From contig JBBRPE010000002.1 of the NCBI GenBank assembly GCA_038228545.1, positions 88,426-148,505 of the forward strand: DNA of 60,080 nucleotides, in the 5' to 3' direction. Below the pieces are notes generated by a model. It searched no databases. It was not told the origin of the DNA and saw nothing but the letters and a program-made list of their open reading frames with translations. Shown in pieces: positions 3 through 27,746 of this stretch; position 1 is the first letter of the stretch; the number at the start of each line of letters is the position of its first letter. The DNA comes from Minisyncoccia bacterium (GTDB lineage: Bacteria > Patescibacteriota > Minisyncoccia > Phycocordibacterales > Phycocordibacteraceae). Both the position numbers and the translations under genes were made by a program.

Positions 3-1154
3 CGTACGGTCTCGTATGAATACCGAAATATTGAATATACGATAGTAAAAGACGACCGCCGAAAGCCGAAAGAGGTCCGCCGTTCAACGGTACCGCAACA
101 AGTTGCAGAACTTCCCCTTGATGAGTTTTACATCAATAAAAGCGATAATTTAAACCCTCGTTATACATTTGACACGTTTGTTGTGGGGGCATTTAACGAA
201 CTCGCATATACCGCTGCCATGGCGGCAATACAGCGTCCTGGTATTACGTACAACCCATTCTTTATTTACGGCGATACCGGTCGTGGAAAGACACACCTTA
301 TCCAAGCGATAGGAAATCAGTACAAAAAGTTGTACCCGAACCGAAAAGTGTTTTACCTCACGAGTGAGAAGTTTGGCACTGACTACACCGATTCGCTTCA
401 GGCGGGAACCGCAAATAGGTTCAAAGAAAAATACCGTCAGTACGATCTCCTTATTATGGATGATGTTCAATTTCTCTCTAAAAAAGAGAAAATGCAGGAG
501 GAATTGTTCCATCTTTTTAATTCGTTATACGACAACAACAAACAAATTATTTTCTCAAGTGATAGGGCCCCTGCATCTATTGCTGATATAGCCGACCGAC
601 TTCGTGGACGTTTTCAGAGCGGTATGACGGTAGATATTGCTGAACCGGACTTAGAGTCTCGTATGTCTATTGTTCGTAAGAAGGCAGCTATTCATGGTGT
701 ATTGCTCTCTGATGAAGTTGTAGAGCACGTAGCAACATCTATTTCAGGCTCTATTCGTGAGCTTGAGGGCGTTATTAACTCAATTGTGTGCCACACCCAA
801 GTAAAAGGTGTTCCACCGGATTTGGCAGAGGTTCGACAGTCGCTTCGTTCGTTCTCACGTCCGGCTAAGACAGTATCAGTGAAGCATGTTGTTTCTAAAG
901 TTGCTGAGTTTTATGGAATAGATGAAGAAAGTATCTATGAAAAGACTCGCAGAAGGGAGGTGGTGCGCCCGCGACAGGTGATTATGTACATCCTGCGTGA
1001 AGATTTTAGTGTTTCGTATCCAACTATCGGCAGTAAACTTGGTGGGCGCGACCACACAACTGTTATTCACTCATGTGAGAAGGTGAAGCGGGAAGTTATT
1101 GAAGACTCTGAACTCGCTAAAGAGATTCAGGACATACGAGGACTGTTGGTATAG
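3..1154 (+). CDS. dnaA: Chromosomal replication initiator DnaA, 5'-truncated by the window edge
   Basis: Frame is open from nt 3 (..LNPRYTFDTFVVG..) upstream of the tracked GTG at 183. Walker A GDTGRGKTHL, Walker B LLIMDDVQF, C-terminal DNA-binding helix GGRDHTTVIHSCEKV. dnaN follows. Confidence 0.95.
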   Translation, partial: RTVSYEYRNIEYTIVKDDRRKPKEVRRSTVPQQVAELPLDEFYINKSDNLNPRYTFDTFVVGAFNELAYTAAMAAIQRPGITYNPFFIYGDTGRGKTHLIQAIGNQYKKLYPNRKVFYLTSEKFGTDYTDSLQAGTANRFKEKYRQYDLLIMDDVQFLSKKEKMQEELFHLFNSLYDNNKQIIFSSDRAPASIADIADRLRGRFQSGMTVDIAEPDLESRMSIVRKKAAIHGVLLSDEVVEHVATSISGSIRELEGVINSIVCHTQVKGVPPDLAEVRQSLRSFSRPAKTVSVKHVVSKVAEFYGIDEESIYEKTRRREVVRPRQVIMYILREDFSVSYPTIGSKLGGRDHTTVIHSCEKVKREVIEDSELAKEIQDIRGLLV

Positions 1155-1380
1155 GTGGGGATAGCCTGTTAAGAACATATGAAAAACTTTCTAAAAACTC
1201 TGGGGACAACAAGCCAAAATGTGATGGTTATCCACAACCTCTCACGTACGGTTTCTTCTGTCCCCACCAGCTATGTAGGGTTTTCAACAGGTAGTTCGAT
1301 TGAAGCACCTCAAGAAAGCCTTACAGCAGGCCATGAAATAGACTTATCCCGATACTCACAGCCCTAATAATAGTATTAGT
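1155..1380. promoter_or_regulatory. dnaA-dnaN intergenic region with DnaA boxes and an AT-rich tract (candidate oriC segment)
   Basis: Perfect TTATCCACA at 1228-1236. Three 7/9 relatives share TGGGGAYA (1156-1164 and 1201-1209 on +, 1258-1266 on -). AT-rich 'taataatagtattagtat' lies just before the dnaN ATG. Confidence 0.5.
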
Positions 1381-2481
1381 ATGATTATCACTTTAGGAAA
1401 GAAAGAATTCTCTGAGGCTGTTAATACCGTCTCGAGATTTGCTGAACGAAGAAGCGCGACACTCCCTGTTCTCTCAGGAATAGCCATAATCGCTGGAGAC
1501 GATGGTATTAAATTACGTGCAACGAATTTAGAGACCGGTATTGATTTGCGAGTAGAAGGAACAATTAAAGAAGCCGGTGTTATAGCACTTCCCGCTATTG
1601 TATTGCGAGAAATAACATCTTCTTTTACTGGTACTGGTGCGATGACACTTGAATATGCAGGTGAGACCGTCGTTATAACCTCAGATAGTGGCAAGAGCAC
1701 CCTTAAAACTCTTCCCTATGAGGATTTCCCAGTGTTACCACTTCCTGACGCCCCTAAGGCCAATTTCTCGCTCTCTGGAGACGCTCTACGTAGTCTTGTG
1801 GGTGCTGTTGTGTCGTGTGCTTCAACATCTACTGTGCGTCCGGAGCTCGCGAGTGTCCTTATTTCAGCTGAGGGTGGAGTTTTAAAGGCCGTTGCGACCG
1901 ATTCATTCCGTCTTGCTGAAAAACGCTCAAGTATTTCTGGTTCACTTCCTCCATTCTCGATACTTATACCTGCCAAGAACGCAGTAGACATACTCCAAGC
2001 CCTTCCTGAAGGCGACATCTCAATTTCCCTTGATGACCACCAATGTGCTTTTTCATGGAAAGAAGGTGTTGTGACAACACGCCTTGTTGCAAACTCCTAT
2101 CCTGACTACACACAAATAATTCCAAAATCTTTTGTTACTGAAGCGACTGTATTACGAAAAGATTTTGAATCAGGGCTTCGTCGTGTAGCAGTCTTCTCCG
2201 ACGCATTTCAAAAAGTCCGTATCGCACTTTCACCCAAAGACAAAACACTAGCGCTTGCAGCACGTAATAACGACATAGGAGAATCAAACGAGCGTCTTGC
2301 CGCATCTGTAATAGGTGAAGAAATTGAAATGTCGTTTAATCATCGCTATCTTTCATCACCTCTCTCCCTCATACCAGCCGACAGCATTACTATCTCAGCA
2401 AGTGGAATAGGACGCGCGGCAGTTATACGGGGTGCTGGAGATACTTCATTCTTGTATCTTGTGATGCCAATGAATCAATAG
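1381..2481 (+). CDS. dnaN: DNA polymerase III beta sliding clamp
   Basis: 366 aa, directly after dnaA. Three-domain clamp length, typical N-terminus (..FSEAVNTVSRFAERRSATLPVLSGI..) and C-terminus (FLYLVMPM). Confidence 0.93.
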   Translation: MIITLGKKEFSEAVNTVSRFAERRSATLPVLSGIAIIAGDDGIKLRATNLETGIDLRVEGTIKEAGVIALPAIVLREITSSFTGTGAMTLEYAGETVVITSDSGKSTLKTLPYEDFPVLPLPDAPKANFSLSGDALRSLVGAVVSCASTSTVRPELASVLISAEGGVLKAVATDSFRLAEKRSSISGSLPPFSILIPAKNAVDILQALPEGDISISLDDHQCAFSWKEGVVTTRLVANSYPDYTQIIPKSFVTEATVLRKDFESGLRRVAVFSDAFQKVRIALSPKDKTLALAARNNDIGESNERLAASVIGEEIEMSFNHRYLSSPLSLIPADSITISASGIGRAAVIRGAGDTSFLYLVMPMNQ

Positions 2482-2554: not shown

Positions 2555-4738
2555 CTACTGGCCCCCAATGTCACTACCATCAATACCAATATTTGTCGTA
2601 GTTCCGTTTCCGACTACTGTAGTTGCTCCACCATTCCAGAATTGAACAGGATACTCCCAACGAGCAAGCTGAGGATCGGACGCATTACCAGGAGTCCCGT
2701 TTTGTGGGTCGTCTTTATTTACCCAATAGAGGATGTCATGCACTCCTGAAGCACCGACGTACGAGCCCTGAAGAGCTGCTGGTGCTGTAGCTGGAATACC
2801 CGGAGGCTCAGGGAAATAGCTCGCTGGATATTTCTTAAGTGCTTCGGCCATAAAGGCATGCCACATTGGTGCAACCACATACCCAGCGATTTCCTTCACC
2901 ATGGGAGTGTTGTTATTGTTTCCTGCCCAGGTGCCAACAACAATGTCTGGTGAGTAACCGACGGTCCACACATCGCGATAGTCGTTGGTTGTACCGGTCT
3001 TCGCCGCCACATCATAATTTGAGAAGTGGAGAGGATTGTCTGCTGAATATTCCGGGAAGCGCGCTTCGTTGTTGGAGAGCATTGCATTCATTTCATTTGC
3101 TACGTCAGGATCGAGCACTTGTGTTGGCTGCTCTTTGTACTCTTCAAGAAGTTTTCCGTTGTTATCAGTCACTGAAAGTATCCCGGTTGGAGGATTTCGG
3201 ATACCACTATCTGCAAACACTCCATATGCACTTGTGAGATCAAGAAGGCGCACCTCAGCCGCGCCAAGTGCGAGTGAAAGTCCATACTGTTTTGCGTTTC
3301 CGAGGGTTGTTATTCCGAGGGATGTCGCAAGATTAATAACATTCTGAATACCAGCAAGGTACATCGTCTTTACAGCCGGCACGTTTATGGACTGAGCAAG
3401 TGCTGTTGTGAAAGTCATGGGACCACGGAACTTATCGTCAAAGTTAGAGGGTGCGTAGCAGGGCGGAGTGTCGTTGTGATTATCCGTAACACCACACGCG
3501 GTTGAGAATTGAGTAGGAAGATCGAACACAATAGTCTGAGGTGTGTATCCTTTGAGAAGAGCGGTAGTGTACACAAAGGGCTTAAATGAAGAGCCCGGCT
3601 GCCTGAGAGCCAGTGCATCGTTATAACTTCCTTGTACCGCGTCGTCAAAATAATTACGCGAACCAACCATAGAAAGTATCTGTCCGGTCTTTGGGTCTAT
3701 CGCAACAAGAGCCGCATTACTTGCATTGAATTTCTGCTGATTCGCGAGTGCATACTGACTCACAATAGATTCGGCGGTGTGCTGAAGATCTATATCAAGC
3801 GTTGTAACAACACCAAGACCCTGATTAACCGCGTCAGGCCCGTATTTGTCTTCAAGGTACTGCTCGATATAAAACACAAAATGAGGAGCGATAATAGACC
3901 CGTTTTGCTGAGGGTTAAACGCCACCACCTCAGTCTTTGCTTGTTGATATTGAACATCAGTTATATATCCAAGCTCTTTCATGCGTGAAAGAACAACGTT
4001 TTTACGCGCATCAAGAAGCTGTCTGTTTTGGCCATACGGGGAATAACGCGATGGCGCCTGTGGGAGAGCTGCGATGTATGCAGCCTCCGCCAGGTCCACG
4101 TCCTTCGATGACTTACCGAAGAAGGCGCGACTTGCAGCCTCGACGCCGTAGAGTGTTCCACCATACGGAGTGTCGTTCAGATAAAAACTAAGAATTTCAT
4201 CTTTCGTGTATCGTTGCTCAAGCTTAATGGCGAGAATCCACTCATGCACCTTTCGGGTAATACTTTTCTGTCCTGTAAGCAAACTGTTTTTAACTACCTG
4301 CTGGGTGAGTGTGGAGCCACCCTGATCAAATGAACCACGCGTTAAATCAACAAAAATGGAACGAAGAATTCCCATGATACTTATGCCACCATGCTGATAG
4401 AAATTTGAATCCTCAATAGAGATTGAGGCCTGTTTTATATACGGAGAAATATCCTCAAGCGGCACTTGGTTGCGGCGCACGTCACGGTTGAGGTCGTAGA
4501 GAATTGTTTTCCCAGTACGATCGTATATTTTTGTCGATTGTGTGACCTTACGAGTATCAAACGAATCAAGTCCTGGAGTCGGCGTAAGGGCAATCCAAAC
4601 AAGACCGATTGCTCCGATAAATAAGACAGTCCCAACTCCCATGAAAACCACCTTCAGGACAGGGTGGGGGTCCCGCAAGTGCTTACGTATGGATTTCAGA
4701 AAACGCTGAAAACGTGTCGAACGTGGCATTGTCGCCAT
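2555..4738 (-). CDS. Class A penicillin-binding protein (PBP1A-type transglycosylase/transpeptidase)
   Basis: N-terminal TM helix; GT51 motifs EDSNFYQHGGI and GGSTLTQQ; transpeptidase SSFKP and KTGTT motifs. Confidence 0.92.
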   Translation of the reverse strand: MATMPRSTRFQRFLKSIRKHLRDPHPVLKVVFMGVGTVLFIGAIGLVWIALTPTPGLDSFDTRKVTQSTKIYDRTGKTILYDLNRDVRRNQVPLEDISPYIKQASISIEDSNFYQHGGISIMGILRSIFVDLTRGSFDQGGSTLTQQVVKNSLLTGQKSITRKVHEWILAIKLEQRYTKDEILSFYLNDTPYGGTLYGVEAASRAFFGKSSKDVDLAEAAYIAALPQAPSRYSPYGQNRQLLDARKNVVLSRMKELGYITDVQYQQAKTEVVAFNPQQNGSIIAPHFVFYIEQYLEDKYGPDAVNQGLGVVTTLDIDLQHTAESIVSQYALANQQKFNASNAALVAIDPKTGQILSMVGSRNYFDDAVQGSYNDALALRQPGSSFKPFVYTTALLKGYTPQTIVFDLPTQFSTACGVTDNHNDTPPCYAPSNFDDKFRGPMTFTTALAQSINVPAVKTMYLAGIQNVINLATSLGITTLGNAKQYGLSLALGAAEVRLLDLTSAYGVFADSGIRNPPTGILSVTDNNGKLLEEYKEQPTQVLDPDVANEMNAMLSNNEARFPEYSADNPLHFSNYDVAAKTGTTNDYRDVWTVGYSPDIVVGTWAGNNNNTPMVKEIAGYVVAPMWHAFMAEALKKYPASYFPEPPGIPATAPAALQGSYVGASGVHDILYWVNKDDPQNGTPGNASDPQLARWEYPVQFWNGGATTVVGNGTTTNIGIDGSDIGGQ

Positions 4739-8382: not shown

Positions 8383-10058
8383 CCGCGTGGTAGGTCTACG
8401 ACTCGGAATACCTCATCGAGCGACGTCGTGCCGTTGAGAGCCTTGATAACTCCGTCCTGAGCCATTGTAAGGAAACCTTGACGTACGACATGCTTCGCGA
8501 TGTCACGCTCGCTCGGATTCTCACGGAGATATTCACCAAGCTCCTCATCCATAAATATGGCTTCATACAATCCGACACGTCCTTTGTAGCCAGTGGTTGC
8601 ATCGTCGCCTTCATTCGTGTCTGGTACCCACGTCATCTCAAGAGAAGTAGGCATAAGTGCCGGGTCTGAAATAGTTGAAAGTATTTTCTCAACGAGTTCC
8701 CGTTGTTCACCCACGAGCGGCACCTGCTTGCGCTTCATAGGGTCGAGTGTTCGGATGAGACGTTGGGCCATAGCTACCGTAAGCGCGGAAGAAAAAGCTT
8801 TTGGGTCTGCGCCGAGGTCTACCAGGCGGGGGAAGGTACCGGCTGCGTTGTTGGTGTGGAGTGTTGAGAATACAAAATGACCAGTAAGCGCCGCTTGAAT
8901 AGCCGTCTCCGCTACTTCAGAATCCCGAATTTCCCCCACCATGATGACGTCTGGGTCCTGACGGAGAATAGAACGCAGGCCGGAGGCAAATGTGTATTCC
9001 TTTCCATCAGTCTGAGTCTGTACGATTCCCGCAAGGTGGTACTCAATCGGATCTTCAATCGTAATAATTTTAATATCTGGTGTGTGGATGTGACGAAGGA
9101 ACGTATAGAGCGTCGTCGTTTTTCCAGAGCCGGTCGGGCCCGTCGTGAGCAACATGCCGTTCGGACGTTTCAATTCAAGCTCGAGCCTAGCGAGCAGTTT
9201 AGGGTGTATACCAAGACTATCGAACGTAACGTTAATCGCTTCCGGGTTAAGAACACGTAGTACAACCGATTCACCATAGCCTCCTGGGATAAGTGAGGTA
9301 CGTATTTCGACTTCACTACCCCCGATGTTTACCGAAAAGCGTCCGTCTTGCGCGCGGTCGGTAACGTTGAGCTTCAGGCCGGACAGAAGCTTGATGCGAG
9401 AAGCCAGACCTTGGTAGGTATGTGGGTCGAAACTATAGGCATTTGTGAGAATACCGTCGAGACGTAAACGCAGACGCACACTAGCTTCCTCAGGTTCAAT
9501 GTGGATGTCCGAAGCCTTCATTGCGAACGCAGCGGCGAGGACCTCCTCAAACAATTTTGAGGTCTGTGCGTGCTTACCGTCTGCGAGCATCTGATCAAGA
9601 TGGGCAGTGAATGCCGAAACACTCGTCAGCTTTGCTTCAAGTTCGTCGAGCTCTTGCTTTGGAACAGAGAACATACCCGCATCACTCTCTGTTGCAAAGG
9701 ACATGTCGGCATACCGGTCGAATGCGCGGTCGAGGCTTTTCTGCGAGACGAGGAATTTATTAAGCGTGTAGCCCTCCTCATTAAATGAACGCTCGAGCTC
9801 AGGAAGGGAAGCGTTTTGAGGGTTCTTAATCGCAAGCGAAAGATGCTTACCGTTTTTATCAAACATAACCGCCTCTGCTTCGCGTGCCTTAGCCTCCGGC
9901 AGGAGTCGGATAGCATCCATATTGATAGGAACGATAGTGAGGTCAGTGTAGGCAATGCTGTATTTCTCCGAGAGTATGCGAGCAAGGTCTTCTTCTTCGC
10001 GTTCGCGGATAGTGGCCAGTTTCTGGTCCTCAGCGTCAGTATTGAAAGGCAACGACAT
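8379..10058 (-). CDS. pilB: Type IV pilus / type II secretion assembly ATPase (PilB/GspE family)
   Basis: Walker A GPTGSGKTTT, Asp box, Walker B IMVGEIRD, His box TGH.V.STLHTN, T2SSE N-domain. Start set at MSLPFNTDAED (10058). Confidence 0.9.
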   Translation of the reverse strand: MSLPFNTDAEDQKLATIREREEEDLARILSEKYSIAYTDLTIVPINMDAIRLLPEAKAREAEAVMFDKNGKHLSLAIKNPQNASLPELERSFNEEGYTLNKFLVSQKSLDRAFDRYADMSFATESDAGMFSVPKQELDELEAKLTSVSAFTAHLDQMLADGKHAQTSKLFEEVLAAAFAMKASDIHIEPEEASVRLRLRLDGILTNAYSFDPHTYQGLASRIKLLSGLKLNVTDRAQDGRFSVNIGGSEVEIRTSLIPGGYGESVVLRVLNPEAINVTFDSLGIHPKLLARLELELKRPNGMLLTTGPTGSGKTTTLYTFLRHIHTPDIKIITIEDPIEYHLAGIVQTQTDGKEYTFASGLRSILRQDPDVIMVGEIRDSEVAETAIQAALTGHFVFSTLHTNNAAGTFPRLVDLGADPKAFSSALTVAMAQRLIRTLDPMKRKQVPLVGEQRELVEKILSTISDPALMPTSLEMTWVPDTNEGDDATTGYKGRVGLYEAIFMDEELGEYLRENPSERDIAKHVVRQGFLTMAQDGVIKALNGTTSLDEVFRVVDLPRG

Positions 10059-14887: not shown

Positions 14888-15011
14888 ACGTCCCGTACTG
14901 GGGATTGTGGTCACGGTTTGCGGCTCTTGTGTTCCACGTATTCACACACGAGCTCGCAACCTCGACCCGGGCTCGTCCGTTTTCATGGGAATGAAAACAT
15001 GACTCCGCCTC

Positions 15012-15059
15012 GCACCCGAAAAGAAAAACAGCACGCAGGTGCTGTTTTTCTTCGGGTGC
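15012..15059. terminator. Long bidirectional hairpin whose stem includes the last nucleotides of tRNA-Lys
   Basis: GCACCCGAAAAGAAAAACAGCAC-GCAG-GTGCTGTTTTTCTTCGGGTGC; the right arm overlaps the tRNA-Lys 3' end (15057-15059). Confidence 0.7.
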
Positions 15060-18048: not shown

Positions 18049-18092
18049 GCACAAAAGTAAAACCGCCCGGAAGGGCGATTTTACTTTTGTGC
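18049..18092 (+). terminator. rpsT terminator hairpin
   Basis: GCACAAAAGTAAAA-CGCCC-GGAA-GGGCG-TTTTACTTTTGTGC; the right arm is part of the distal tRNA-Arg 3'-end repeat. Confidence 0.75.
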
Positions 18093-18243
18093 TCCCAGCA
18101 GGACCGCGATTACACTTATCGGTCATTACAAGACCAGTACACCGTGCGGATTTTGCTGCACAAAATACTCGCACGGTTTTCGATTCCTGCCCGTATGCCT
18201 CCCAGGCATACTTGGGAGCGCAGAGCAGACTACGTTTACTTTG
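18086..18243. repeat. tRNA-linked element A: distal direct copy and inverted copy of the tRNA-Arg(CCG) 3' end around a structured core
   Basis: TTTGTGCTCCCAGCAGGA occurs at 18086-18103 and again at 18240-18257, the real tRNA end. The inverted copy is TTCGATTCCTGC (18179-18190), a 22-nt hairpin (18191-18212), then TGGGAGC (18213-18219). The core holds an 8-bp stem ACCGTGCG/CGCACGGT. Confidence 0.7.
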
Positions 18244-18315
18244 TGCTCCCAGCAGGAATCGAACCTGCGTTTGCCCCTTCGGAGGGGGCTGTCCTATCCA
18301 CTGAACGACGGGAGC
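18244..18315 (-). tRNA. tRNA-Arg (anticodon CCG)
   Basis: Acceptor GCTCCCG/TGGGAGC, D arm GTTC..GGAC, anticodon stem GCCCC/GGGGC with loop CTCCGAA, T arm GCAGG-TTCGATT-CCTGC. Confidence 0.9.
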
Positions 18316-18396
18316 TTGCGCACACTTTATCAGGATTCCATGCTCTCGGTGGGAAGTTCAGCATTTCTAACCCACTTCGTTCCTAAGAAATTGCTG

Positions 18397-18553
18397 TCAC
18401 GCATCGGTCACAGATAATTTTCTGCTGAAAATTTCCGCGACCCCACCTCGGCGCCGTCGCGCCTCCGGCTTTCGATTTCCACCAGAGGTCGTCCCACAAC
18501 CTCTTCCGAGAGCACAAATGAAAGCACGCCCCGTCGGGGCGTGCTTTCATTTG
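18397..18553. repeat. tRNA-linked element C: inverted copy of the tRNA-Arg(GCG) 3' end plus boxes shared with elements A and B
   Basis: TTCGATTTCCACC (18471-18483), a 22-nt hairpin AGAGGT..ACCTCT (18484-18505), then CCGAGAGCA (18506-18514). A 57-nt palindrome (18506-18562) runs into the real tRNA end. Box TCACGCATCGGTCA lies at 18397-18410. Confidence 0.65.
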
Positions 18554-18625
18554 TGCTCTCGGTGGGAATCGAACCTACATTACCAGCTCCGCAAGCTAGC
18601 GTCCTATCCATTGAACGACGAGAGC
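18554..18625 (-). tRNA. tRNA-Arg (anticodon GCG)
   Basis: Acceptor GCTCTCG/CGAGAGC, D arm GTTC..GGAC, anticodon stem CTAGC/GCTGG with loop TTGCGGA, T arm GTAGG-TTCGATT-CCCAC (one mismatch). Confidence 0.82.
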
Positions 18626-19988: not shown

Positions 19989-20073
19989 CGGAGGAGGTGA
20001 GATTCGAACTCACGGTGACTTTCGCCACGGCGCATTTCAAGTGCGCTGGAATAAACCACTATCCGACTCCTCC
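19989..20073 (-). tRNA. tRNA-Ser (anticodon TGA), class II with long variable arm
   Basis: Acceptor GGAGGAG/CTCCTCC, anticodon stem GCGCA/TGCGC with loop CTTGAAA, variable arm CGTGGCGAAAGTCACCG, T arm GTGAG-TTCGAAT-CTCAC. Bidirectional terminator AGACCC-AAC-GGGTCT at about 19955-19980. Confidence 0.9.
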
Positions 20074-20553
20074 CTAATTAAGCACCTTACTACTGAGCCA
20101 GCTTTTTTCTAAGTAATGCTCCTCGTAGTGGCAGTTCGGACAAATAAGCTCAAGATTTGAGTACTCATTGTTGCCATGATTACGATCCTTGTGGTGGACA
20201 TGCAATATTTCAACTTTGTCATAACAACATCTTTCGCATTTAGAGCCGCGTAATCCAATAACACGTAACTTAATTGCTCTCCCATCCATGACCTTATCTT
20301 TTGGTCGCCCGATTTTGTACTTGATACCGGCACGGTGGGCATTTGCACAGACTCGGCTACAGGTTTTCTTGTTGGCACTCGCAAGTATGGGTTTCTCGCA
20401 AACAACACAAGGGGTCTCTCTACGATTTGCTAGGCCGAAACAAGCCTGACTACAGAAAACTCGACCGGAACGTATTTCGCTAGGGCGTCGATATATGTCC
20501 CATTTGCAGGCCGCACAAACAGTGTTTGGCTTTCTTTTGTGTGATTCCGACAC
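20074..20553 (-). CDS. HNH endonuclease with Cys-rich N-terminal zinc-ribbon-like region
   Basis: C-terminal HVHHKDRNHGNNEYSNLELICPNCHYEEH (H-N-H with CxxC); multiple CxxC pairs at the N-terminus. Visibly lower G+C than neighbours. Stop codon 20074-20076 directly abuts tRNA-Ser nucleotide 1. Confidence 0.85.
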   Translation of the reverse strand: MSESHKRKPNTVCAACKWDIYRRPSEIRSGRVFCSQACFGLANRRETPCVVCEKPILASANKKTCSRVCANAHRAGIKYKIGRPKDKVMDGRAIKLRVIGLRGSKCERCCYDKVEILHVHHKDRNHGNNEYSNLELICPNCHYEEHYLEKSWLSSKVLN

Positions 20554-27558: not shown

Positions 27559-27746
27559 TTGTGCCCAGGAGAGGATCGCGAGTACGCTCTTGGTCACAAG
27601 TCATTCGTTCGTCGTCACTCACGAATGCTCGCGACCCCGCCTCGCGGGGCTCGTTGCTACTCGCCCAACGCTCCGGCATTCAAGTCCTTTCCTGGTGCTA
27701 CAAAATGAAGTCGCCGGACGCTTTCGCATCCGGCTCGTTCATATTG
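27559..27746. repeat. tRNA-linked element B: distal direct copy and inverted copy of the tRNA-Leu(GAG) 3' end around a GC-rich structured core
   Basis: TTGTGCCCAGGAGAGGA occurs at 27559-27575 and again at 27744-27760, the real tRNA end. Inverted copy TTCAAGTCCTTTCCTGGTGC at 27679-27698. Boxes shared with A (27576-27596) and C (27630-27644). Confidence 0.7.

Follow-up and report, generated by a model that had tools for sequence, protein, structure and literature searches.

The subject of this analysis is a small non-coding unit, here called element A, that lies behind the intact tRNA-Arg(CCG) gene in a 60,080 bp stretch of contig JBBRPE010000002.1 (hereafter the window). Element A probably (we would put this at roughly 0.6) belongs, as an integrated copy of a divergent subtype, to a family of small non-coding insertion elements that occur in Patescibacteria and move as a folded single strand. 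Copies of this family sit in the 3′ part of tRNA genes, most of them with the junction in the T-loop behind T55 of the universal GGTT^C and some with a junction at the acceptor end, and they share a common architecture, consisting of a left hairpin (SL0), two core hairpins (SL1 and SL2, or SLa and SLb in the A subtype) and a fixed 3′ end …GTGAC. The tRNA gene appears to be rebuilt by the 5′ arm of SL0, which duplicates the tRNA from the point of insertion as far as the discriminator. An earlier note on this DNA had proposed a family of three members. That this is a repeated element type and not a one-off scar was borne out, but the count was too low, as at least four members were found in the window (A, B, C and a copy behind tRNA-Lys(UUU)) and at least 120 loci in metagenomes scanned with a 24-base core pattern, the matches of which are biased towards one subfamily.

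Linkage to tRNA genes and the point of insertion

The complete unit, of approximately 110–190 bp, was found in more than 100 independent loci. Among the 121 matches listed, 85 have a tRNA gene on the same strand 20–120 nt upstream of the core, as the tRNA link suggested earlier would have it, and at least 34 anticodons are represented. The remainder comprise 15 that are near a contig end and cannot be judged, 17 without a tRNA and four that lie just upstream of a tRNA. Of the 59 listed copies with a direct repeat of 10 nt or more, 39 have C56 of the tRNA as the first repeated base and five more have position 55. C56 is the last base of the conserved …GTGACC, and the repeat is directly joined to the …GTGAC terminus. 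The other end of the repeat is variable, falling mostly at positions 73–78 and farther out in tandem arrays, and a second class of copies, joined at the acceptor end, has a repeat of only 3–7 nt (such as CAC or CAAA). This bimodal and variable length indicates that the repeat tracks restoration of the tRNA and is, therefore, made up of the bases that the tRNA would otherwise lack beyond the insertion point, extended by chance matches in the trailer, rather than being a fixed target duplication. Hence, the element itself appears to carry the replacement 3′ end (X1), and the distal copy (X2) would be the displaced original. A fixed target-site duplication, as in a model based on target-primed reverse transcription, is disfavoured by the same bimodal distribution.

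Comparison with related genomes leads to the same view of X2. Judged by the neighbouring genes, the window belongs to Patescibacteria, with a Parcubacteria genome (Mur ligase 69 % identical) as the best relative, and the order tRNA-Ser, tRNA-Arg(GCG), tRNA-Arg(CCG), rpsT (convergent), ruvA, mur ligase, tRNA-Lys is conserved. In seven syntenic relatives, tRNA-Arg(CCG) directly abuts the bidirectional terminator, followed by rpsT, and in four relatives the two tRNA-Arg genes are 30–60 nt apart; these represent the empty sites for elements A and C. As the tRNA end abuts the terminator in the empty sites exactly as X2 does in the window, X2 would be the displaced original and the other copy would have come with the insert. 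A more distant relative, L010 (metagenome loci are referred to by L numbers), with a Mur ligase 55 % identical, has an A-type element at the orthologous place, in which all hairpins are preserved via compensatory changes and the acceptor-like segments have changed together with the tRNA of L010. Similar units are found in other relatives behind tRNA-Arg(TCT), tRNA-Ser, tRNA-Gly and tRNA-Lys. When identical proteins were sought as a route to empty sites at strain level, none was on record for rpsT, and the contig recovered with the Mur ligase ends short of the tRNA-Arg locus.

Structure of the element and its conserved core

The window contains nine tRNA genes (ARAGORN, Rfam). An 18-mer, TTTGTGCTCCCAGCAGGA, occurs in it in two exact copies, 18086–18103 and 18240–18257, and a match, with two mismatches tolerated, was found in none of 100 shuffles. 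Element A extends over 18086–18261, with the minus strand as its tRNA-sense strand, and the insert is 154 bp long and includes no open reading frame (ORF); its parts are listed in Table 1. X1 is read as the 5′ arm of the left hairpin, and the first 10 nt or so of the spacer that follows it are similar to the trailer behind the distal repeat. The inverted copy is in two segments, of which X′b extends to T54, 2 nt past the start of the family's direct repeat, and X′a reads GCTCTCA in L010, altered together with L010's own tRNA. In the predicted fold, the stem of SLa is formed by ACCGTGCG and CGCACGGT (18141–18148 and 18170–18177), and the region as a whole folds strongly (−61.7 kcal/mol, z = −7.8). 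The GGUC/GACC stem of SLb is replaced by GAUC/GAUC in L010. X2 continues into the bidirectional rpsT/tRNA terminator and overlaps the right arm of the rpsT terminator hairpin. The direct repeat, the inverted copy, the 22 nt hairpin, the 8 bp stem and the overlap with the terminator all agree in position with the earlier description. However, the duplicated tRNA segment starts at G57-A58-T59 (18118–18120), is interrupted by a 14 nt mini-insert and continues at T60.

Mini-inserts of this kind, 13–15 nt long and conforming to A(A)GYGUAMUCGCGR, separate positions 59 and 60 in the T-loop of the displaced tRNA end in element A (18104–18117), element B (27578–27591), L010 and L178 (3922–3938 and 4036–4050), that is, in A-type copies and in some standard copies. 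They are able to pair with the 5′ strand of SL2 or SLa, replacing the usual 3′ strand. The kinship of A with B and C that had been noticed earlier was confirmed and consists of this shared mini-insert and the 3′ strand of a hairpin.

Table 1. Positions in the window of the parts of element A and of the other family members
Feature	Position	Strand	Basis
tRNA-Arg(CCG), intact	18244–18315 (start 18243 or 18244)	minus	ARAGORN and Rfam tRNA, 59.3 bits
X1, proximal repeat; final 18 nt of tRNA-Arg(CCG), positions 56–73	18244–18261	minus	family-wide repeat boundary
Trailer/spacer, tRNA end to inverted copy; sense CAAAGTAAACGTAGTCTGCTCTGC	18220–18243	minus	sequence
X′a, complement of acceptor 3′ strand; sense GCTCCCA (window TGGGAGC)	18213–18219	minus	inverted-repeat pair
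Hx, extra hairpin CCGTATGCCTCCCAGGCATACT, 22 nt, exactly between acceptor-complement and T-stem-complement	18191–18212	minus	sequence, fold
X′b, complement of T-loop and T-stem 3′ strand; window TTCGATTCCTGC, sense GCAGGAATCGAA	18179–18190	minus	inverted-repeat pair
SLa, long hairpin of A-subtype core	18141–18177	minus	predicted fold; G–C to U–A compensatory change in L010
SLb, mini-hairpin GGUC-NUGUAAU-GACC; ends in the family …GACC terminus and matches the base of SL2	18121–18135	minus	A-subtype alignment
T-loop remnant G57 A58 T59 (18118–18120), then 14 nt mini-insert AAGUGUAAUCGCGG (18104–18117)	18104–18120	minus	sequence
X2, displaced original tRNA 3′ end, T60–A73 plus CAAA	18086–18103	minus	repeat; empty sites in relatives
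Element C, behind tRNA-Arg(GCG)	18341–18562	minus	covariance model R1, 74.5 bits, E = 8e-17; repeats
Element C parts	X2 18341–18355; SL1–SL2 core 18406–18469; X′b 18471–18483; Hx about 18484–18505	minus	
Element B, behind tRNA-Leu(GAG)	27559–27745	minus	R1, 55 bits
Element B parts	X2 27559–27577; mini-insert 27578–27591; core 27592–27677; X′ 27679–27698; terminator-like hairpin 27713–27734	minus	
Fourth copy, acceptor-end class, behind tRNA-Lys(UUU)	14909–15054; core 14909–15009	minus	R1, 21 bits, E = 0.002

In every T-loop copy, the bases directly before the core are the complement of the T-loop and the T-stem 3′ strand, and they end in GAA, the complement of T54-T55-C56, 2 nt past the repeat. 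Together with X1 and the trailer, this inverted copy (X′) makes up one long hairpin, SL0, in which the new tRNA 3′ end, X1, is the 5′ arm and X′ the 3′ arm. X′ can pair with X1, X2 or the empty target, which is the three-way competition for pairing noticed previously, and it is an arm of the element's own hairpin. Many copies include Hx at the acceptor/T-stem boundary, often with the stem GCAAG…CTTGC, and the same position is occupied by hairpins with unrelated stem sequences in element C, L010, L014, L023, L123, L126, L127 and L139. The left hairpin often doubles as the tRNA terminator, and the copies that are not at tRNA genes have a short self-contained hairpin in the place of SL0. In the tRNA-Lys(UUU) copy, the left hairpin takes in the last bases of the tRNA. 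In element C, SL0 is a perfect 28 bp palindrome with a 1 nt centre (18506–18562) that holds the last 10 nt of tRNA-Arg(GCG), the trailer and a terminator-like stem; if formed in RNA, this palindrome would compete with the acceptor stem of that tRNA. The tRNA gene itself (18553–18625, minus strand) has the anticodon GCG instead of the usual bacterial ACG, and GCG is likewise found at the syntenic position in most relatives.

In most members, the core reads, in the tRNA-sense orientation, GCC-GGA-(hairpin)-GA-GGC, then GG, then GGUCGCG-(hairpin)-YYGUGACC, corresponding to SL1 and SL2. When 50 compact cores taken from metagenomes were aligned, 11 of the 21 core pairs were found to include changes on both sides that preserve the pair, and one pair that was not constrained by the search pattern is G·U in 29 of the 50, for which the opposite strand would have A·C mismatches, G–C in 14 and A–U in five. 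All ten cores tested also fold better, by 4–17 kcal/mol, in the sense than in the opposite orientation. Hence, it is the tRNA-sense strand that folds in this family, and in the window this is the minus strand and not, as taken before, the plus strand. An alternative prompted by two G·U pairs in the closing helix, in which the window plus strand would form a minihelix resembling the adjacent tRNA, was rejected on these grounds. The tandem-GA internal loop (GGA/GA) of SL1 is preserved while its closing pairs swap, from GCC/GGC to GGC/GCC, in the tRNA-Lys copy.

A covariance model, R1, built from the 50-core alignment scores elements C, B and the tRNA-Lys(UUU) copy as listed in Table 1; element A receives no score. 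Element A belongs to a divergent subtype, common to L010 and L178 and represented by these three sequences only, in which the core is made up of the long hairpin SLa, then RUAC, then GGUC-NUGUAAU-GACC. A weak partial match of R1 to the SL1 half (9847–9900, minus strand, 11 bits, E = 0.5), within a type II/IV secretion ATPase gene, is probably due to chance.

Evidence of mobility, proposed mechanism and rival explanations

Several features of the metagenome loci lead us to read the family, from its sequences, as selfish and mobile, namely gene interruption, insertion into partial tRNAs, tandem arrays and decay. The element in L217 (about 2709–2781) interrupts an ORF (2608–3720, minus strand) for a Schlafen-group-3/DUF2075-type helicase right behind a Walker-B-like VLVDE, with no visible target duplication, and copies are also found behind rplL and other protein genes. 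Three copies are within partial 5′ tRNA copies, at GGAGGGTT^C, CAGGT(T)^C and GAGTG(GT)^C, beside an intact copy of the same tRNA. Arrays of two or three units are present in L013, L043, L125, L126 and L178, the outer copy of an array in L138 is degenerate, and orphan copies retain a tRNA-like X2 in the absence of any tRNA. A 42 nt stretch of the core is identical at 41 positions in element C, behind a tRNA-Arg, and in L002, behind a tRNA-Lys. In L178 (3750–4080), an orphan tRNA 3′ fragment is followed in tandem by a standard element, an A-type element and a third partial unit, indicating that different subtypes stack at one site.

We propose a mobile form that is single-stranded, folded and of tRNA-sense polarity, and that most likely consists of DNA. 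X′ would pair with the target across T55|C56, as it is able to do because X1 and the target are identical, and would thereby align the target for strand exchange by an enzyme supplied in trans, perhaps comparable to HUH-type nickases or structure-specific recombinases. The 3′ end of the element would be joined to C56 of the target and its X1 to T55, and the tRNA gene would be rebuilt scarlessly by these two joints. The match of X1 and X′ to each tRNA might be achieved via template switching on the hairpin (palindrome growth). In a more far-reaching form of this proposal, which we regard as quite unlikely, the element is self-targeting and holds copy and anti-copy of its target in one hairpin, X′ reading the single-stranded tRNA gene, X1 being swapped in and the pair being re-templated for each target. 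This would amount to a protein-light, programmable and scarless insertion at GGTTC that uses perhaps host enzymes only or a novel nuclease.

The preference for DNA is based on the loops, the terminators and the decay of outer copies. Among 236 predicted hairpin loops, five are GNRA and none is UNCG, and there are 29 GNA triloops, mostly closed by C–G (C-GAA-G alone accounts for 13). Triloops of the C-GNA-G type, such as C-GAA-G, form notably stable mini-hairpins in DNA. In 46 of 85 copies, the tRNA and the core are separated by a terminator-like hairpin with a T-run, as against 12 of 85 for the control region. A role for the core as RNA in a read-through transcript, which the earlier note had held to be equally possible, is accordingly disfavoured. 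In its most developed form, such a role would be that of a functional tRNA-like non-coding RNA, co-transcribed with the tRNA, in which, once the tRNA has been released, X′ pairs with X2 to form an acceptor/T-stem mimic that is processed by RNase P, RNase Z or the CCA-adding enzyme, and SL1–SL2 either serves as a protein-binding site or acts on GUGAC^C as a ribozyme. The G·U pairs specific to the tRNA-sense strand, the GGA/GA loop preserved despite the closing-pair swap, the location of Hx at precisely the place that is taken up in a tRNA by the D and anticodon arms, and the conservation of the A-type structure between genomes with Mur ligases only 55 % identical would all be accommodated. However, this explanation appears unlikely, given that 54 % of copies have the terminator-like hairpin and T-run ahead of the core, GNRA and UNCG loops are nearly missing, the repeat includes non-functional trailer, and no Rfam family is matched, and given the gain and loss between close relatives, the decay in arrays and the gene interruption.

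The same direct repeat of the tRNA 3′ end, beginning in the T-loop and accompanied by empty sites in relatives, might be expected of an attL/attR pair left by an integrase island or prophage that has lost its interior, with the core as a leftover attP arm. Such T-loop-starting repeats were reportedly described by Williams in 2002 as the classical signature of integrases that target T-loops. The part of this idea that holds is that one tRNA-end copy arrives with the insert and the other is displaced. Neither an integrase nor a deleted island is supported; the complete unit is only about 110–190 bp, and no integrase gene or remnant lies between the repeats of element A, nor is there an integrase or an ORF in any of the more than 100 independent loci with the same unit. 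Strand-specific compensatory pairs would be needless in double-stranded protein-binding arm sites, and insertions without repeats occur outside tRNA genes. In a scan of viral contigs, 84 of 85 matching stretches were chance matches in GC-rich phage DNA, and the only genuine one, L043, is a bare tandem array beside cellular genes. We therefore consider an island remnant to be very improbable. Hardly better placed is a retroposon resembling a short interspersed element, in which target-primed reverse transcription starts at a 55|56 nick, with an RNA that terminates in …GUGAC as its template, and a variable second nick produces the variable duplication; the precise 3′ junction, the imprecise 5′ junction and the variable 5′ part of the element would be explained, but the bimodal repeat length (about 18 nt or more versus 3–7 nt) follows tRNA restoration, insertions without duplication occur, a terminator is upstream of the core in half of the copies, and clustering of the ORFs from approximately 118 loci revealed no reverse transcriptase near any copy. 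Local replication errors, i.e. palindrome growth and slippage at tRNA terminator hairpins generating each locus independently, are effectively refuted as a full explanation, as separate origins behind 34 kinds of tRNA, or inside a protein gene, are not possible for a conserved 60–90 nt core that has both its sequence and its covarying structure in common. They may nonetheless contribute to X′, which template switching could account for, and long near-perfect palindromes centred on the tRNA trailer, such as the 28 bp palindrome in element C, are in line with this. A TnpB-like guide RNA, composed of a scaffold and a 3′ guide, was ruled out because the intact upstream tRNA would be self-targeted. 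Group I, group II and archaeal bulge-helix-bulge introns were also rejected; the unit follows an intact tRNA and is much too small, no Rfam intron is matched and the junctions cannot pair as a bulge-helix-bulge.

Insertion as a folded single strand thus remains the preferred reading, but a number of points weigh against it. It does not explain how X1/X′ pairs come to match each of at least 34 tRNAs. The conserved SL1 internal loop and the tRNA-like closing helix would also suit a functional RNA, and the five non-tRNA copies examined all point the same way as the gene preceding them. The core's invariant positions were set in part by the search pattern, and, as element A has no G·U pairs, its strand is assigned by homology with the family only. 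The orientation of replication is a further difficulty. As the window opens with dnaA (called as an ORF with a partial N-terminus) and dnaN (183–2481, plus strand), the replication origin is probably just to the left, though the GC skew across the window is flat and provides no signal to orient replication. If the origin is by dnaA, replication meets the four element-bearing tRNAs head-on and the leading strand would be copied from the folded strand, which runs counter to the lagging-strand rule of IS608-type elements; a sense strand that is exposed as the gene is transcribed would fit. Finally, the ORF clustering revealed no cluster of transposase, integrase or reverse transcriptase ORFs near the cores, and an IS200-type (IS608) TnpA query had no tblastn match in 2.2 Mb of loci, which is a weak test.

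Other searches for a partner gave similar results. No HUH-Y2 transposase was seen among the window genes scanned, the genomes being present only as fragments, and where an autonomous copy was sought, the large inter-tRNA gaps in L006 and L010 were found to be filled with ordinary genes. Two types of nuclease-like ORF were observed next to tRNA genes. One, of 159 aa (20074–20553, minus strand), has an HNH endonuclease motif (Pfam HNH, E = 6.6e-5) and a stop codon that abuts the 5′ end of tRNA-Ser(TGA) at 20073, and looks like a free-standing gene of the homing-endonuclease type parked on a tRNA. The other is a family of ORFs of approximately 225 aa (L134 844–1512, L191 8197–8880 and 9661–10341, L214 3947–4630, L232 1416–2114 and L129 2783–3208) with an N-terminal transposase-type helix-turn-helix and a LAGLIDADG-like LYWAEG motif, which give weak profile matches to I-DmoI (E about 0.01–0.04). 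In four of the six (those in L134, L191 and L214), the ORF overlaps the 5′ end of a tRNA gene or stops no more than about 30 nt away from it, and the family is possibly a trans-acting nuclease or a second tRNA-linked selfish gene.

Relationship to known elements and significance

With Rfam 15, at gathering and E-value thresholds, only tRNAs were found, plus chance miRNA-like or leader-like matches on palindromes, and neither Rfam CL00001 nor ARAGORN detected a tRNA, tRNA pseudogene or transfer-messenger RNA over 18086–18242, 18316–18552 or 27559–27745, even at E ≤ 10. Cultured phage and plasmid collections contained no match to the element, and the full-text literature searched held no description of the family. 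Element A is not a tRNA pseudogene, and the earlier statement that it cannot be matched to a known class is upheld. The family is apparently undescribed, though it relates to tRNA-restoring integrative elements and to miniature insertion elements of the hairpin type.

As in the tRNA islands and prophages of tyrosine integrases, a replacement tRNA 3′ end is brought in, the displaced original is left as a direct repeat, and identity runs from the T-loop to near the tRNA 3′ end. Unlike them, the element, at approximately 110–190 bp, has no integrase or cargo, and it includes a strand-specific hairpin core and an inverted att copy and uses non-tRNA and acceptor-end sites. Members of the IS91 family insert beside GTTC or GTCC without target duplication and have subterminal palindromes at both ends and single-stranded circles (PMC13181058), and they and their miniature derivatives move by HUH rolling-circle transposition, with one constant and one variable end and mobilisation of flanking DNA (PMC13181058, PMC3189936). 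The T-loop GGTTC resembles the IS91 target GTTC, and the IS91 palindrome abutting the terminal tetranucleotide resembles SL2…GACC of the element; GGTTC and three GGTT^C-like sites agree with the tetranucleotide, but the acceptor-end targets (GCGC^A and similar), which have no conserved T, and the L217 site do not. In addition, it is the variable end of the element that adjoins the target motif, IS91 has no tRNA-restoring arm, and no HUH transposase was found among the window genes scanned.

The PATEs of IS200/IS605 and the REPIN-RAYT system likewise consist of non-coding hairpins that are moved as a specific single strand and inserted, without target duplication, 3′ of a base-paired short motif at extragenic 3′ positions, and the subterminal hairpins and strand-specific folding are present here. 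However, the left and right hairpins of the element are unrelated to each other, pairing is mostly 3′ of the insertion point and over 10–20 nt, the orientation near dnaA is the opposite of the lagging-strand rule, and no Y1 transposase or RAYT partner was detected in the weak tblastn test. In CTX attP(+) and integron attC sites, a hairpin of two inverted copies mimics a duplex target, the structure of one strand is conserved rather than the sequence, and after integration a direct repeat closely precedes an inverted copy. A two-copy hairpin is indeed formed by X1 and X′ (e.g. 18506–18562), but the target is the tRNA T-loop and not dif or attI, the junction is T55|C56 and not G|TT of GTTRRRY, no GTTRRRY crossover or dif-like site was found, and SL1–SL2 has no counterpart. 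As with tRNA-like structures and pseudogenes, X′ and X2 can form a 12 bp acceptor/T-stem stack identical to that of the neighbouring tRNA, but the element lacks a D arm, an anticodon arm and an intact T-loop. It also differs from classical miniature inverted-repeat transposable elements, as its ends are unrelated hairpins and the repeat ranges from 3 to >25 nt. Hence, among the known chemistries compared (HUH, IS200/IS605 and folded att sites), there is none to which the element can be assigned.

If the preferred reading is true, Patescibacteria, which have tiny genomes with few recognised mobile elements, carry very abundant miniature insertion elements in many tRNA genes without damage to them. 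The elements inflate intergenic regions, their long palindromes and tandem arrays break assemblies, and the orphan tRNA 3′ fragments they leave can mislead annotation, while they often supply the tRNA terminator. A covariance model of the core would also help to mark the lineage and to trace recent gene flow. The C56 junction, the copy/anti-copy hairpin and the strand-specific core would lead to testable predictions on a chemistry of single-strand integration at the T-loop, the most conserved sequence in biology.

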